A DNA stretch of 33,549 bases from a virus (taxonomy: Duplodnaviria > Heunggongvirae > Uroviricota > Caudoviricetes): the IMG/VR virus record IMGVR_UViG_2778261567_000022; one strand, written 5' to 3'. Positions 1-28,960 of the stretch are shown here, in pieces. The notes under the pieces were generated by a model. It ran no database searches and was not told the DNA's origin. It saw only the letters and a program-made list of their open reading frames with translations. Position 1 is the stretch's first letter; every line of letters begins with the position of its first letter. The position numbers and the translations under genes were made by a program.

Positions 1-900
1 GGATTTGACCAGTCTGATAAATCTCGCTTAAGTGCTCTTGCAAAAGAAAATGGTATTGATGTTAAGTCTGATGTTGGAAAAAGTTTGTTTTTCCTTTGTG
101 TAGGAAAGAACAAAGGGTGGCGGAAAGTTCAGAAAGCCAGCGATTATGGCGTAATTATTCTGACAGAAGAACAATTTATCAATTTTATTGATACTGGTGA
201 AATTCCTCTTGAGCAAGACTGCGTGGTTGAGAATGATATCAGTAAATCGCTTGAGAAGGATGTTAACACTTACAAGAGTATGATAGATGAGTTCTCGCTT
301 TCTATCCGTACTGTAAGGGAGTTTCGCCGTAGTAATGCGTTGATTGCGGTATTTGTTGATGGTTACGCAGCTGGTTGGCGCTTTGCTGTAAAAGAGTGTT
401 ACAAGGATTCTTTGGATATAAAACTTACCCCAGTAAAAACAGAGTTTTTTAATTATGAAATTTGGACGCAAGGGGATTCCTTTCAGTTTAATCGCGGTGA
501 TGTTTTTTATAGTGATCGCCTGGCGTATGATTCTTATTGCGATTTTTTAAAGCTTGATGATGCTGTTGTTCTTCAGGTGAAATATGAGTGCTTTTCTGGT
601 TACGATTCTGTAAGTACTTTTGATGGTGTGATGGATGGTGAGTTTTCTTTTTCTCGTATGGAACCCAGACCTGTCCATAAATTACCTGTGCTGATTGAAA
701 CTCAACTGTATGACCCCGGAAAGATTATTGTTGATGTTTTTGTTCCTGATGCTGCGAAAAAACAATTAAAACTTAAAGACACCTTAGAGCTGAAGCAGGA
801 TGAATTTGTCTGTTTACTTCAGTCAGGGTGTTGTTGGGTTAAACGAAGGGAAGCAGGAGATAAGAAAAAACCTGAATTTATTAACCTATTCAAAAAATAA
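1..900 (+). CDS. BRCT-like domain protein, 3' portion only (gene starts upstream of the window)
   Basis: Frame 1 is open from base 1 to TAA at 898-900. Visible segment GIDVKSDVGKSLFFLCVGKNKGWRKVQKASDYGVIILTEEQF fits the second half of a BRCT fold (compare LigA C-terminus). About 200 aa C-terminal region has no motif I recognise. Roughly 37% GC versus the GC-rich prophage. Confidence 0.45.
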   Translation, partial: GFDQSDKSRLSALAKENGIDVKSDVGKSLFFLCVGKNKGWRKVQKASDYGVIILTEEQFINFIDTGEIPLEQDCVVENDISKSLEKDVNTYKSMIDEFSLSIRTVREFRRSNALIAVFVDGYAAGWRFAVKECYKDSLDIKLTPVKTEFFNYEIWTQGDSFQFNRGDVFYSDRLAYDSYCDFLKLDDAVVLQVKYECFSGYDSVSTFDGVMDGEFSFSRMEPRPVHKLPVLIETQLYDPGKIIVDVFVPDAAKKQLKLKDTLELKQDEFVCLLQSGCCWVKRREAGDKKKPEFINLFKK

Positions 901-924
901 AAATATAGCCCGCATATCGCGGGC
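893..924 (-). terminator. rho-independent terminator at 3' end of hok-like transcript, copy 1
   Basis: Hairpin GCCCGC-ATATC-GCGGGC at 908-924, followed on the minus strand by a T-rich run (plus strand AAAAATAAAAATATA at 893-907). Confidence 0.5.
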
Positions 925-1316
925 AAATGTCTATGTAATTCAACGGAGAAAGGGTGCCATATCGACCGAACCCGGCAACCGGATAGCGGGGGCTTTCACC
1001 CCCGCTGCGGTTTCTTACGGTTTACACTGCAAGAACGCCGCAAATTCTGACCACATGATGTTAAGTCTGAACTCACACGGAGAACGGTGTATCATCCAGA
1101 CGGTCAACAACATGGTTAAGCATAAAATGCTCACGATGATCGTTTTTTGCGGCATAGCGCTTGACTCCTTTTACAGGGAGGCGCTAACCTTCCACTTGTC
1201 ACGGTAGGAAGTGTTAGGGCCTCGGGTTAACATTTAAGTTGACTCGGGGCCTTTCCACATCCGGCCTTCAGGTAATCCTTCCAGCCATCAGCCGAAAGGC
1301 ACCCGCGTGTAATGTA
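901..1316 (-). repeat. tandem direct repeat unit 1 = hok/sok-like type I toxin-antitoxin locus
   Basis: About 415 bp that realigns to 1623-2036 at high identity (roughly 85-90% by eye); contains an intact Hok-family ORF with GGAG RBS and 3' terminator. Confidence 0.6.
1015..1155 (-). CDS. hok: Hok/Gef-family type I toxin, 46 aa (MPQKTIIVSILCLTMLLTVWMIHRSPCEFRLNIMWSEFAAFLQCKP)
   Basis: Minus-strand ORF missed by the 60-aa ORF track: ATG at 1155, TAA at 1017-1015, AAAAGGAG RBS 9 nt upstream. Single hydrophobic helix then R-x-x-x-C-E-x-R ... AAF-x-x-C-K, the Hok signature; closest in memory to HokA. Confidence 0.65.
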   Translation of the reverse strand: MPQKTIIVSILCLTMLLTVWMIHRSPCEFRLNIMWSEFAAFLQCKP

Positions 1317-1418
1317 CTGATTTCCCTTTGTGTGCGCAATGCCTGGCGTTGAAGCAGACAACGCTATCGCACTGGTGATATTCTTTCGCACAGGCTTACT
1401 CTGTCCTGTGTCGGGGCG

Positions 1419-1622
1419 ATGAAAATGATTCTTTCAAGAAAAAAAATTGAAATTGAGGTTGTGCAAAGTGGAACGGCTGATAATCCTGAGACGGTTACAA
1501 AAATAAAGGTTTCACGCCCGGAAGATCTTGAAGCGTGTGGTGTTATCGTGGAAAAAATTTGTGCTATTCATGCAAAATCAGTTAATACCACTGCCAGTAA
1601 CGACCACAATAAATACAACTGA
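1419..1622 (+). CDS. hypothetical small protein, 67 aa
   Basis: ORF between the two hok-like units, AT-rich like the upstream gene; stop TGA at 1620-1622 abuts the copy-2 terminator hairpin. Weak RBS, no recognisable motif. Confidence 0.25.
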   Translation: MKMILSRKKIEIEVVQSGTADNPETVTKIKVSRPEDLEACGVIVEKICAIHAKSVNTTASNDHNKYN

Positions 1623-1647
1623 ACAAAAAAGCCCGCATATTGCGGGC
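1622..1647 (-). terminator. rho-independent terminator at 3' end of hok-like transcript, copy 2
   Basis: Hairpin GCCCGC-ATATT-GCGGGC at 1631-1647 preceded on plus strand by AAAAAA (U-run on minus). Loop differs from copy 1 by one base, stem conserved. Confidence 0.5.
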
Positions 1648-2036
1648 AAATACGTCTGTAATCCAACGGAGAAAGGGTGCCATATCGACCGAACCCGGCA
1701 ACCGGATAGCGGGGGCTTTCACCCCCGCTGCGGTTTCTTACTGTTTACACTGCAAGAACGCCGCAAATTGTGACCACATGATGTTAAGCCTGAACTCACA
1801 CGGTGACTTGTGTATCATCCAGACAATCATCAAAATAGTTATGCATAAAATGCTCACTATGATCGTTTTTTGCGGCATAGCGCTTGACTCCTTTTACAGG
1901 GAGGCGCTAACCTTCCACTTGCGAGGTAGATGGGTTAGGGCCTCGGGTTAAACAAATGTTTGACTCGGGGCCTTTCCACATCCGGCCTTCAGGTAATCCT
2001 TCCAGCCGTCAGCCGAAAGGCACCCGCGCGTAATTT
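1623..2036 (-). repeat. tandem direct repeat unit 2 = hok/sok-like type I toxin-antitoxin locus
   Basis: Second copy of the roughly 415-bp unit; similarity to copy 1 ends near 2036, where the iteron region begins. Confidence 0.6.
1738..1878 (-). CDS. hok: Hok/Gef-family type I toxin, 46 aa (MPQKTIIVSILCITILMIVWMIHKSPCEFRLNIMWSQFAAFLQCKQ)
   Basis: ATG at 1878, TAA at 1740-1738, same RBS context as copy 1; differs from copy 1 mainly by conservative substitutions in the transmembrane segment. Confidence 0.65.
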   Translation of the reverse strand: MPQKTIIVSILCITILMIVWMIHKSPCEFRLNIMWSQFAAFLQCKQ

Positions 2037-2039
2037 ACC

Positions 2040-2690
2040 TTTTACGTCCGTTACGTGCAACGGATGACGTGGCTGTTTTTCCTTCCCCTTCGCCATCCTT
2101 TTTCGGAGCAGTTGTGCAAAAGTGTGCAAAAGTGATTTTTGCTGCCACTCCCCGCCAGGCCGCGCCAGTTCTGGCTTTCCTGATTTTTTCGTTTTCGTCG
2201 CCGGATCCTTTTTCAGATCTTCGATCGTGACGTAATTTTAAAAATCTCTTGTTATTCAGTGCATTAAAATTTTTCGGGATCCTCAGAAAGCCGGAGTTTT
2301 TGCACACTTTTGCAAAACCTTGCACAAAGTGCAAAACCATTCAGAAGGGAAATCCTCAGTAATGGTGCGCCCTGGCGGGGTGTTTTGCACCCCTTTCGAT
2401 TTGCAAAATTTATCGTACACAAATACCGGAGGCGTGTGCGGGGTAGCGCCGATTACGTCACTTTACGCGTTACGTCGCCCCCGAAAATTTCCGGCCATTT
2501 GCGGCGATTTTGGGGCGCAGAAATCGTTTTCTGATGTCAGGGGATCGAATCAGGCTGGCGGGGTTATCTCTTCGTTACGCGACGTTTTACGTGGGGATTA
2601 CGTGGGGCGTTTCGTCCATCTTTTTTTCTGCTGCGGACGGTTTTTTCGTGGTGGGTGATGTCCGGTGATGAATATTTTTTATTGTCGGGG
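2040..2690. promoter_or_regulatory. iteron-rich non-coding region (candidate prophage attL arm / regulatory or origin-like region)
   Basis: No convincing ORF. Direct repeat TGTGCAAAAG x2 (about 2113-2132); palindrome TTGCACAAAGTGCAA (about 2322-2336) plus further TTTTGCA/TGCAAAA half-sites; seven or more TTACGT/GACGT motifs including TTACGTGGGGATTACGTGGGG (about 2590-2612). Confidence 0.35.
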
Positions 2691-6256: not shown

Positions 6257-8316
6257 TATGCAAGCCTCACGATGTAGTTAAATGCGATGTTTTTGACGGT
6301 GTTTTCCGCATTACCGGTGGGGTTAATGGTCAGGCCGTGGCCATGTTGACCCAGTGCGAGCGTGTGGATGTGTTCGCCAATGCTTACCGAATGTGTGTGT
6401 TCCGAAACTCTGGCGATCAGGTTCGCCCCGGAGCCCGGCCCGTATGCGGTCCAGTCACCGCTGCCTTCCGGTGACGCGGTGGCGGTTCTTAATGATATTG
6501 TTGCGCTGAACGGCCCCGCGCTGTTTGTTGTTTTTGTGCCGTAATTGAAGGATGAGGTCGTTTTTGTGCCAAGGTCAGTATTTGAGACGCTCCCTCCGTG
6601 GGTGTGCGATTTGATGCCGTCCTGCTCCTGTGACAATACCGCACGACCGCTGGCAGGTTTTCCCTTGATTGTCCAGCCACGCATATCCGGGATACGACCA
6701 TCCGGATAGGCTTTTGCCAGCAGGGGATATCGTGCTTTATCGAATGTCTGCCCCACCATGATGGCGTAACCGGCAGGTGGGGTGTCTGACGGCCACGGCA
6801 GGGGAACGCCTGCGGGTAACAACTCACTTGCAGGCAGTGCGCCGATGTCCTGTGGTGTGGGTTTGTTTTTGTCCGTGTAAGTGCGGTACCAGATGGTGCT
6901 TTTCCCTTTATTTAAAACAACCCCGGTGAACTGTGTGCGGAGGTACATGTCGGCAGGGTTTGGGCTTTCGAGACCTGTCGTGATCCTGATGATCCCCCCG
7001 TTGATGTCGCCTGATACTTCGATAAGGCAGCCTCCAAGGCAGATATCACCATAGCCCGTATCAGTGAGCACGCTGTGCCGGGAAAGTGAAATATTGGCTT
7101 TGAATATCCAGAGTCCTGGTCTGAAGGCGCCACGTTCATTCAGCCATTCCACGAATTGTTCTGTTGTCCAGCGTTGCCCTGCTTCACCCACGTACCCGTC
7201 TTTTGCATAAACGCGTGGTGCGCCCACGTTGATCAGGAACAGCTCCTTGTTGGGGATGTCCTCACCATTGCGGTTTTTCGCAAGCCGACCATCGGCGTTG
7301 TCCATGGCGATCTTTATAGCCTTTGGCGTGGCTGCCTGTGTCTCTGATGTACTGGTGGTGGCGCTGCTTAACTGTGTGAAGCCCTTTTCTTTCAGCGTTG
7401 CGTCCGGGTGGTTGCGTGATTTTTCGTGTTTTTTCAGAGCGTCCAGCCAGTGGCGTTCTTCCGGCGTTTCTCTGGGGCGCAGGTCAGTCACGTTGCCGTC
7501 TTCATCAATGTCAGCAAGGGCAAAAAAATATTGCCGGGCGGCCTCCTTCCTGTGTGCTTCCAGCAGGATCTCTTCCGTGGCGGCGGGGTCGGCCATGATA
7601 ATATCGTGCTCCACCGTCCATTCACTGGTGAGCGTACCGGTCCACCATACTGTCAGCCAGATACGGGACGGGAAGTCTGGCGTGGTCAGCGGTATGTCTT
7701 CGGTCAGCTCTGCGCGTAATCCCTCCACGTAACCGGTCCCTTTGCAGAGTGACCATCTTTCGCCTTTTTTAACCAGCCAGCCGTCCCCAAAGAATGCAGC
7801 GTTACCGTAAATATCGATGTTTTCCCGGCGCTGGCGCTCGTCCATGGCCGCCAGGCGTGCCGTGAAGTCTATCTGCCAGGTCTGCGCCGGGGTGGTGATA
7901 CCTGTGGCTTCCTTCGCACCGCTGTACTCCATGAGCATGGAACGGACCAGCACATTACCTTCGTTACCGTTGTGGGTTCTGATTTTTTCCTGTGTGGGGG
8001 CGTGAACAATCATGGCCAGCGTGCTGGTTGCTTTGCTGACCAGTCCCACCCAGTTAAATTCAAAATCACCCAGCTCTGCCCCCAGGGTGACCGAATAAAC
8101 CACGGCATTCTCATTCACCACGCCGGTTTTGCCAACGGCCTGGCGGTGAACAATCTGATCTTCAGGTGGCAGGGTTTCGTCGGGGGATACCGGTGTTTCC
8201 GGGTTGAGGTCCGGGACGTTTGCAAAAACAAACTCATCCAGCACAACGGGGGTGCCTTCCGCCGCCTGCTGTGCCTTGAGCCGGATAAAGGCGCTGGTAA
8301 TTACAGATTTCGCCAT
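6256..8316 (-). CDS. tail fibre protein, 686 aa
   Basis: Contains [33 protein letters not shown] (conserved P2 H / lambdoid side tail fibre motif) and a C-terminal Gly/Ser/Thr-rich region with repeated HxH motifs (SHTHGG, EHTHSV, EHIHTL, GQHGHG). Confidence 0.8.
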
Positions 8317-8338
8317 AAAGTCATACTCCTTCAGTCAT

Positions 8339-28640: not shown

Positions 28641-28960
28641 GGTGTTTGGCCTCTTGTAGTAAGTTCTGAAAACTCACCAACCCGAGGCGGTAATCTCAGG
28701 GTGGCGAGACGTACAGGGTTACCACAACCGGCTACAAGAGATCCCGGCCCGACCGAAGTCGGCCCCGTACGCCCCGCCATAATTCTGACGCGAAAAAGAC
28801 GTGGCGATACAGTACGCACAAAAAAACCGCTGGCGCGGTTGTGCGCTCTTGTAGTCGGCGGGGTGGTAATCCCGGCACCCGTTTTATGAGGTGCGGGAAA
28901 ACTGTAACCCGACCAGGCGAACGCTGGCAAGCGGTTTTTTTGTGTGTGCATGATGATCAC
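28641..28960. ncRNA. structured non-coding region inside the early operon (candidate small RNA or RNA regulatory element)
   Basis: About 320 bp without a credible ORF in a tightly packed operon; inverted repeat CTCTTGTAG ... CTACAAGAG (28644-28733); hairpins around 28816-28847 and 28921-28932, the latter followed by TTTTTTT on plus; CTCTTGTAGT occurs twice. Confidence 0.3.

Follow-up and report, generated by a model that had tools for sequence, protein, structure and literature searches.

Tandem type I toxin-antitoxin loci of the hok/sok family as cargo of a P2-like Escherichia coli prophage

The viral sequence IMGVR_UViG_2778261567_000022 (Caudoviricetes), 33,549 nucleotides (nt) long and referred to here in its full extent as the window, carries on the minus strand two neighboring units, A (899-1320) and B (1622-2038). 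They very probably represent two independent type I toxin-antitoxin modules of the hok/sok type, which a P2-like Escherichia coli prophage integrated in the ytfP terminator carries as cargo at its integrase-distal end. This level of confidence refers to the identity of the modules and to their molecular mechanism, and not to any single biological role. Membership of both units in the hok/sok family is supported by the protein family of the toxin, the probable homology of the mRNA leader, the predicted fold-back of the mRNA, and the RefSeq annotation.

Repeat units and toxin peptides

The first-pass annotation had described two minus-strand direct repeats of about 415 bp, each with a 46-residue Hok/Gef open reading frame (ORF) behind a good ribosome binding site, and each finishing in a hairpin and a U-run; all of these elements were recovered. 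The repeats are real and measure ~420 bp. The repeat finder divides them into three collinear blocks (899-1198/1622-1921 with 92% identity, 1208-1230/1929-1951 with 91%, and 1239-1317/1960-2038 with 96%), with a start-to-start distance of 721-723, and in BLAST the two full units, each with the -10 region of the hok promoter at one end and the terminator at the other, are 91% identical. In the pairwise alignment the homology of the two copies ends abruptly in the hok promoter -10 region, ~13 nt 5' of GGGTGCC, and on the other side just beyond the terminator hairpin with its T-run.

The toxin ORFs, hok-A (1015-1155, minus strand, MPQKTIIVSILCLTMLLTVWMIHRSPCEFRLNIMWSEFAAFLQCKP) and hok-B (1738-1878, minus strand, MPQKTIIVSILCITILMIVWMIHKSPCEFRLNIMWSQFAAFLQCKQ), encode peptides of 46 amino acids (aa) and, as had been remarked, escape an ORF track that starts at 60 aa. 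The suggested Pfam search places both peptides above the gathering cut-off of PF01848 HOK_GEF (27.8 and 26.0 bits, respectively, with the cut-off at 22 bits). Both also match phrog_251 end to end (E 4.6e-19 for hok-A and 2e-19 for hok-B), a family with the PHROG label 'MokW-like host killing'. An AAGGAG Shine-Dalgarno (SD) sequence, read directly from the DNA, is located 9 nt 5' of each ATG (1165-1170 and 1888-1893). In the genome of E. coli Z1323MEC0001 (NZ_CP148318.1), which is 99.4% identical to the window over the region discussed here, the RefSeq counterparts of hok-A (WP_016237651.1) and hok-B (WP_001135716.1) are both Hok/Gef family proteins. Relatives found in the peptide database search come only from E. 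coli, and every name given by the source is 'Hok/Gef family protein'. A scan of genome contigs (one genome per species) with the peptide alignment returned pattern matches and no confirmed relative, and no PADLOC model matches the Hok peptides or a 67-aa ORF that separates the two units.

For comparison, 24 distinct homologous units from 16 loci were aligned, originating from E. coli chromosomes, IMG/VR viral contigs, Stx phages, and an IncC plasmid with a P2-like prophage. The 46-codon ORF is uninterrupted in all 24, with a median ratio of nonsynonymous to synonymous substitution rates (dN/dS) of 0.25 (0.31 between A and B), and the peptide is therefore under purifying selection. The hok-A and hok-B peptides are 85% identical to each other, and residues C12, T14, C27, E28, and C44 are present at positions conserved across Hok (10.1101/2025.08.07.668861). 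Hok/Gef toxins have up to ~50 residues, a transmembrane segment near the N terminus, and a conserved Cys-Glu motif, here C27-E28; both peptides conform to this description.

Structure of the toxin mRNA

The mRNA leaders extend over 1156-1304 in unit A and 1879-2025 in unit B (both minus strand). Their 5' ends were placed at 1304 (GGGUGCC...) and 2025 on the basis of homology to the Rfam family RF01794, the full-length matches of which cover 1144-1304 (model positions 1-157, 39.2 bits, E 8.5e-7) and 1867-2025 (48 bits, E 3.9e-9), the gathering score being 59. Though Rfam names this family 'sok', its matches and the hok ORFs share one strand, and the family consensus agrees with what we take to be the hok mRNA leader of plasmid R1. 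Candidate promoters inferred from the sequence precede both 5' ends: TTGCGC (1339-1334) and TACATT (1316-1311) for hok-A (1311-1339, minus strand), and TTGCAC (2060-2055) and TAAATT (2037-2032) for hok-B (2032-2060, minus strand), each with a 17-nt spacer. The hok-A candidate agrees with 8 of 12 consensus positions, which is under the scan threshold. The -10 region GTAnATTA is present in all homologous units.

The 400-nt transcripts fold with z-scores of -8.35 (A) and -8.32 (B). Whether the minimum-energy or the centroid structure is taken, the 5' sequence GGGUGCC..CGGCUGA of each unit pairs with UCGGUCGA..GGCACCC at 970-952 and 1693-1675, respectively. These fold-back elements, similar to the fold-back inhibition (fbi) element, occupy 952-970 in unit A (UUCGGUCGAUAUGGCACCC, with predicted pairing to the mRNA 5' end at 1304-1288) and 1675-1693 in unit B (with predicted pairing to 2025-2009), on the minus strand and ~30 nt 5' of the terminator hairpin in both cases. 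Fold-back inhibition, which the first-pass annotation proposed to look for in the folded transcripts, is thus predicted for both units. The RNAalifold consensus of the 24 units retains the 5'-3' pairing, a hairpin sequestering the SD, and a hairpin in the 3' untranslated region (UTR), and it places the start-codon region in long-range pairing with the distal coding region. Of the 90 predicted pairs, 16 show compensatory changes on both sides. Within the fold-back stem, columns 1-6/357-363 are invariant and columns 10-15/346-351 change on one side only. After in silico removal of the 3' 57 nt, the 5' end of the mRNA refolds into a local hairpin (nt 1-35); activation of R1 hok/sok by 3' trimming demands such a refolding, and it is predicted here as well. 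Judged by energy and conservation, the architecture of fold-back inhibition characteristic of hok mRNA is predicted in both units.

The terminator hairpins are located at 908-924 for hok-A (GCCCGCGATATGCGGGC TATATTTTTA, with an interrupted T-run) and 1631-1647 for hok-B (GCCCGCAATATGCGGGC TTTTTTGTTC), both read on the minus strand. Rfam matches to isrK and anti-hemB over the hok 3' UTRs reach 16.9-27.6 bits (gathering score ~50) and were dismissed as terminator-like resemblance.

Candidate antisense RNAs and divergence of the two copies

On the plus strand, opposite the hok SD, the motif TTGACT-18-TAACCT is found at 1161-1190 and 1884-1913, a position that presumably corresponds to that of the R1 Sok promoter. 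The candidate sok-A (1161-1254) is composed of a -35 element TTGACT at 1161-1166, a -10 element TAACCT at 1185-1190, and an RNA of ~1197-1254; in the candidate sok-B (1884-1975) the -35 element is at 1884-1889, the -10 element at 1908-1913, and the RNA at ~1920-1975. Plus-strand antisense transcripts are accordingly predicted where the first-pass annotation expected them, in a narrower span than its 1170-1320 and 1890-2036. The predicted Sok RNAs have ~56-58 nt and consist of a single-stranded 5' tail of 17-19 nt (19 nt in sok-A), a hairpin of 16-17 bp (16 bp in sok-A), and UUU. Across the 24 units the candidate Sok promoter region hardly varies (mean entropy 0.19 bits), a conservation that is confounded because the hok SD occupies the other strand of the same region.

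The leaders of A and B are 98-100% identical outside two short segments. The first comprises the top of the hairpin and its loop (33% identity), with compensating changes that preserve the stem, and the second is the complement of the predicted Sok 5' tail (59% identity). In the family as a whole, too, no part of the leader varies more than the tail target and the hairpin loop (0.88-0.89 bits, compared with 0.11-0.32 bits elsewhere), and the 24 units show 16 distinct tail-target haplotypes. The calculated duplex of the Sok tail amounts to -34.3 and -32.5 kcal/mol with the cognate mRNA, and to -11.4 and -12.8 kcal/mol with the mRNA of the other copy. Since the divergence is confined to the tail target and the loop, and the non-cognate duplexes are weaker, each Sok is predicted to control probably only its own toxin mRNA. 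Module-specific antisense control is an established principle in other tandem type I arrays.

Leader reading frame

In all 24 units the sequence GAAGG-N4-AUG is invariant; it is found 44 nt into the mRNA and 4 nt 5' of the Sok-complementary region, and this leader SD-AUG abuts the predicted Sok pairing region. The ORF starting at the invariant AUG is a mok-like remnant of 8 codons (MWKGPEST) and a stop in unit A (1234-1260, minus strand), ending 79 nt before hok. In unit B it has 24 codons (1907-1981, minus strand) and stops 29 nt short of the hok AUG, at the base of the SD hairpin. Across the 24 units its length ranges from 1 to 61 codons, and it extends past the hok start in only three of them, namely the unit of the IncC-plasmid prophage (61 codons), L002:6718, and L008:2383 (40 codons each). 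In three others (L018:2520-2931, L007:2397-2805, and L003:5994-6399) it is reduced to a 'start-stop', AUG UGA. A canonical mok overlapping hok is present in neither unit. A GTG-initiated, mok-like frame of 23 codons in unit A (1131-1202) was also considered, and rejected as a conserved feature; its start is missing in unit B, and many homologues have a 1-nt indel that disrupts it.

The two loci had been called intact. This description holds for the toxin ORF, the SD, the predicted mRNA fold, the terminator, and the candidate Sok, and it needs a caveat because the mok frame of the canonical system, overlapping hok, is not found (8 codons in A, 24 in B). In the R1 system mok is required for hok translation. 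Either translation of a leader ORF of any length through the Sok target is sufficient for opening the structure, or hok initiates at its own SD, or some of the units are poorly expressed.

Several observations weigh against the assignment of the units as working hok/sok modules. The mok frame is not conserved, and Hok may be poorly translated or controlled in a different way. Both leader matches to RF01794 remain below the gathering score. The consensus promoter scan of 800-2800 called no promoter, and both hok promoters are weak matches. In the case of Sok, the -10 element TAACCT agrees with 3 of 6 consensus positions and the terminator has only three U; given this poor -10 and the outcome of the scan, the antisense RNA stays a prediction. 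The covariation neither supports nor refutes the fold-back stem, since its columns are invariant or change on one side only. Finally, unit B carries Q at a conserved Glu (E37 of unit A); the toxicity of Hok has been reported to survive single substitutions of conserved residues (10.1101/2025.08.07.668861).

These points raise the alternative that the units are decaying, silent hok relics, maintained in sequence through recent spread with the prophage and yielding no Hok since the mok coupling was lost. The leader ORF, so short in unit A and reduced to one codon in three homologues, and the weak promoter matches speak for it, as do the disruption of K-12 hokA by IS150 and reports that the K-12 hok loci are mostly inactive (cited in 10.1101/2025.08.07.668861). 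Decay does not explain why the 46-codon ORF is intact in every unit with the dN/dS given above, why 16 pairs show compensatory changes, or why the flanks and the recognition region vary when next to nothing changes in the SD, its hairpin, the fold-back, and the Sok promoter region; the concentration of variation in the antisense recognition region fits selection on a working antisense pair and not neutral decay. We consider relics to be improbable, and retain the assignment of both units as hok/sok modules.

A more speculative proposal, to which we assign a low probability, concerns both the leader frame and the divergence of the copies. In the HokA-like, phage-borne subfamily a minimal leader ORF of variable length would have taken the place of the mok coupling, and Sok would act by occluding its start or standby site. 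The hypervariable tail and loop would then reflect diversifying selection for orthogonality and for resistance to 'anti-addiction' by co-resident Soks, and the tandem pairs at the ends of P2-like prophages would be the product of an arms race.

Prophage location and neighboring genes

By its gene content, the window is essentially one P2-like prophage, with an integrase, a helix-turn-helix regulator in the position of the P2 C repressor, Cox, a replication endonuclease, Ogr, portal, terminase, GPO and P2-family capsid genes, and tail and baseplate genes. Comparison with the empty site of K-12 revealed the attachment (att) core of ~18 nt, GCCACCTTC[C/G]GGTGGCG, which is the ytfP terminator hairpin and is found at both junctions outside the window, ~440 nt to the left of its start (L001 7666-7684) and just beyond int (reverse complement of L004 22827-22845). 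No att repeat came to light when exact 11-mers were compared between the junctions, and the core emerged only against the empty site. Because the att core flanks them ~440 nt to the left of the window, a gene for a BRCT-domain protein, unit A, the 67-aa ORF, and unit B are all inside the element, and the modules are cargo of the P2-like prophage between two att copies. The hok units are ~1.3-2.5 kb from the attachment site, at the integrase-distal end. Their earlier placement next to a prophage junction is thus right as regards the proximity to one end, and is to be amended in that the units are within the prophage, as its cargo and not as its neighbor.

In other strains the same prophage end adjoins serS and contains two or three hok units, and canonical P2-like prophages have one or two units between ogr and att, at the att-proximal end. 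In Stx phages an 88%-identical unit is located near lom, with the same 'MokW-like host killing' label of phrog_251. At least two units are found in 9 of the 16 loci, the copy number varying from 1 to 3. Of 5,426 complete E. coli genomes, 737 give some match, and in 7 the exact arrangement, with the insert between the units, extends over 80% or more of the query. This insert, a segment of ~255 nt (~1362-1618) with the 67-aa ORF, is present in the window and in L002, and absent from the tandem pairs of L003 and L018, and therefore represents an indel polymorphism; the units of L011 show the same 722-nt spacing. One of the latter (L011:3576-3986) is a mosaic with an A-type leader and 3' end and a B-type coding sequence, which points to recombination or gene conversion between tandem copies.

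The distribution of the units can also be read in another way, with the repeats mattering mainly as DNA: portable blocks of homology and bidirectional terminators around variable att-proximal cargo that promote the exchange of cassettes, the toxin-antitoxin function being incidental. The variable copy number, the 255-nt segment that comes and goes between units in related loci, the mosaic units, and the fact that the BRCT gene and the 67-aa ORF, both on the plus strand, end exactly at a hok terminator are all in line with such a role. It leaves the purifying selection on the peptide and the conservation of the RNA structure unexplained, and any tandem array would be expected to entail, as a by-product, recombination between its repeats. 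We hold this explanation to be very improbable, and return to the units as toxin-antitoxin modules below.

The outermost cargo gene, convergent with unit A, encodes the BRCT-domain protein of 399 aa (window 1-900, plus strand; the full gene at L001 7822-9021), with matches to Pfam BRCT (E 1.3e-8), to phrog_36782 (E 2e-74), and, weakly and over the BRCT region only, to the PADLOC candidate PDC-S48. It may be a moron gene with a function in defence or DNA metabolism. The plus-strand frames around the units had been set aside as spurious. For those at 800-1207, 1640-1951, and 1528-1773, which overlap the units, no credible family match was found, in agreement with this view. The 67-aa ORF (1419-1622, plus strand) is not obviously spurious, as it matches the C-terminal part of phrog_14142 (positions 74-122 of 128, E 1.4e-6) and as RefSeq annotates a hypothetical coding sequence of 198 nt over most of it. 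It is probably a gene fragment, convergent with hok-B and outside the toxin-antitoxin mechanism.

On the other side of unit B, toward the baseplate gene, ~700 nt (2039-2732) are devoid of a convincing gene; a 101-aa ORF at 2035-2340 (minus strand) has no Pfam match, and the stretch found no match in the phage collection. It is dense in TGCAAAA/TTTTGCA, partly in 10-nt phase, and in TTACGT/ACGTAA, with a 95% inverted repeat (2111-2131 and 2298-2318), and it could be an array of binding sites for a regulator, packaging, or replication. In the early region of the prophage, a C4 antisense RNA (28697-28784, minus strand, 80.4 bits) adjoins an isrK Hfq-binding RNA (28820-28894, minus strand, 65 bits), both above the Rfam gathering score. 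Several independent genomes with the prophage have the tail-fibre genes (L001 14386-16452, window ~6265-8331) annotated as a pair of partial pseudogenes, which might reflect an invertible or mis-annotated segment rather than decay. Between the prophage and ppa, only short remnants (~81-83% identical) of the K-12 ytfP-chpS-chpB-ppa interval are kept, and most of the chpSB type II toxin-antitoxin locus is consequently, as it seems, absent from this host.

Proposed mechanism and biological role

The anatomy of each module described above comes from the analysis of its sequence, and the dynamics proposed here are modeled on the paradigm of R1 hok/sok. A weak minus-strand promoter would give a stable mRNA of ~400 nt, in which the 5' end is paired with the 3' element and the hok SD is held in a local hairpin, so that the full-length mRNA would be translationally inert. 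Slow trimming of the 3' end would strip off the fold-back element, upon which the 5' end would refold into its local hairpin. A short-lived plus-strand Sok of ~57 nt would pair with the leader just 3' of the invariant SD-AUG, blocking leader translation and/or triggering cleavage by RNase III. If transcription of the module stopped, as might happen when the prophage is lost, when a superinfecting phage shuts off the host, or in the course of induction, Sok would decay first, the 46-aa membrane peptide would be made, and the membrane potential would collapse.

As to what active modules might be selected for, stabilization of the prophage by addiction is a possible role that we put forward tentatively, and abortive exclusion of other phages is possible to a slightly lesser degree; an aid to lysis and release on induction is doubtful, and the absence of any role more doubtful still. 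The exclusion of T4, which had been brought up in connection with these loci, has a basis in the literature, as a reduction of T4 plating by hok/sok is cited in the discussion of PMC8621323.

The aid to lysis has to be weighed separately, as a reading in which the modules are active and selected for assisting lysis and release of their own phage on induction, and not for addiction or exclusion. Many P2-like phages are not SOS-inducible, which counts against it. Two orthogonal copies are, in addition, not obviously needed for the timing of lysis. Its precedent is hokW-sokW of the Stx2 prophage Sp5, where the sokW RNA vanishes on induction, HokW is made before the endolysin, and deletion of the locus delays growth arrest and halves the released phage (PMC8621323). 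This is a third documented role of a prophage hok/sok besides addiction and exclusion, though for a toxin of another subfamily (PMC8621323). The modules described here are likewise located in a complete-looking prophage, although HokW is a 51-aa peptide of that other subfamily in a lambdoid phage, and the present peptides resemble HokA. Altogether, we judge the aid to lysis to be unlikely as the selected role of the two hok/sok modules.

In general, the finding is an ordinary one, since the Hok/Gef annotation of the loci is not new and tandem hok genes borne by prophages have been described before at the population level. It matters little beyond correct annotation; length-filtered ORF tracks miss toxin genes of less than 60 aa. 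The finding also shows the tandem pair to be att-proximal cargo of a P2-like prophage. What interest remains lies in two points. The copies diverge mainly in the predicted antisense recognition region, from which orthogonal control by the two antisense RNAs is predicted, and the mok frame is not conserved in this subfamily, which questions the generality of the translational-coupling model derived from R1.

Comparison with known systems

A 2026 preprint catalogued 32,532 hok loci, with a four-fold enrichment of hok in prophages and two copies in 3.5% of hok-carrying phages (10.1101/2025.08.07.668861). Islets of 2-6 homologues within 2 kb account there for 13.5% of the chromosomal hok of Escherichia, an islet being defined as at least two hok homologues within 2 kb on one replicon and in the same 60%-identity cluster (10.1101/2025.08.07.668861). 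The ORFs of units A and B, 723 bp apart and in the same peptide cluster with 85% identity, form such an islet. The preprint deals with coding sequences only and explicitly sets aside Sok, Mok, and mRNA structure, and the divergence of the recognition region and the variable leader ORF are not in it (10.1101/2025.08.07.668861). Papers on the defence hotspots of P2-like phages (PMC9122126, PMC13586616) do not mention hok.

The 'MokW-like' labels suggested HokW of Sp5 as the closest relative, a candidate that was rejected on the basis of the primers in PMC8621323, which show a Gef/RelF-like peptide. With its 51 residues (MKQQKAM...DYESEK), it belongs to another subfamily and another locus, present as a single copy in a lambdoid phage. 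The closest named peptide, by eye and by alignment, is K-12 HokA of hokA/sokA, which has in common the N-terminal MPQK, WMI, S.CE, and AAFL.CK. Only ~40% of the aligned residues are identical to it, and no DNA similarity is detectable at E 1e-3; a mokA is annotated at this locus, the hokA of which is disrupted by IS150.

Side-by-side modules are also known from the ibs/sib and ldr/rdl families of E. coli, in which the antisense RNA discriminates its own target via short variable regions. Their toxins are unrelated to Hok and chromosomal, and the discrimination is experimental there and only predicted for sok-A and sok-B.

The founder among type I toxin-antitoxin systems is hok/sok of plasmid R1. 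The units described here differ from it in the length of the toxin (46 instead of 52 aa), the absence of a conserved mok overlapping hok, the weaker -10 element of Sok, the location in a prophage and not on a plasmid, and an Rfam score below gathering. They resemble it in the Pfam family of the membrane toxin, the predicted mRNA of ~400 nt with a probably homologous leader of ~150 nt, the predicted 5'-3' fold-back lock just 5' of the terminator, and the AAGGAG SD 9 nt from the AUG. The single-stranded 5' tail followed by a hairpin, which we take to be the structure of R1 Sok, is likewise predicted for the two antisense RNAs of the prophage.

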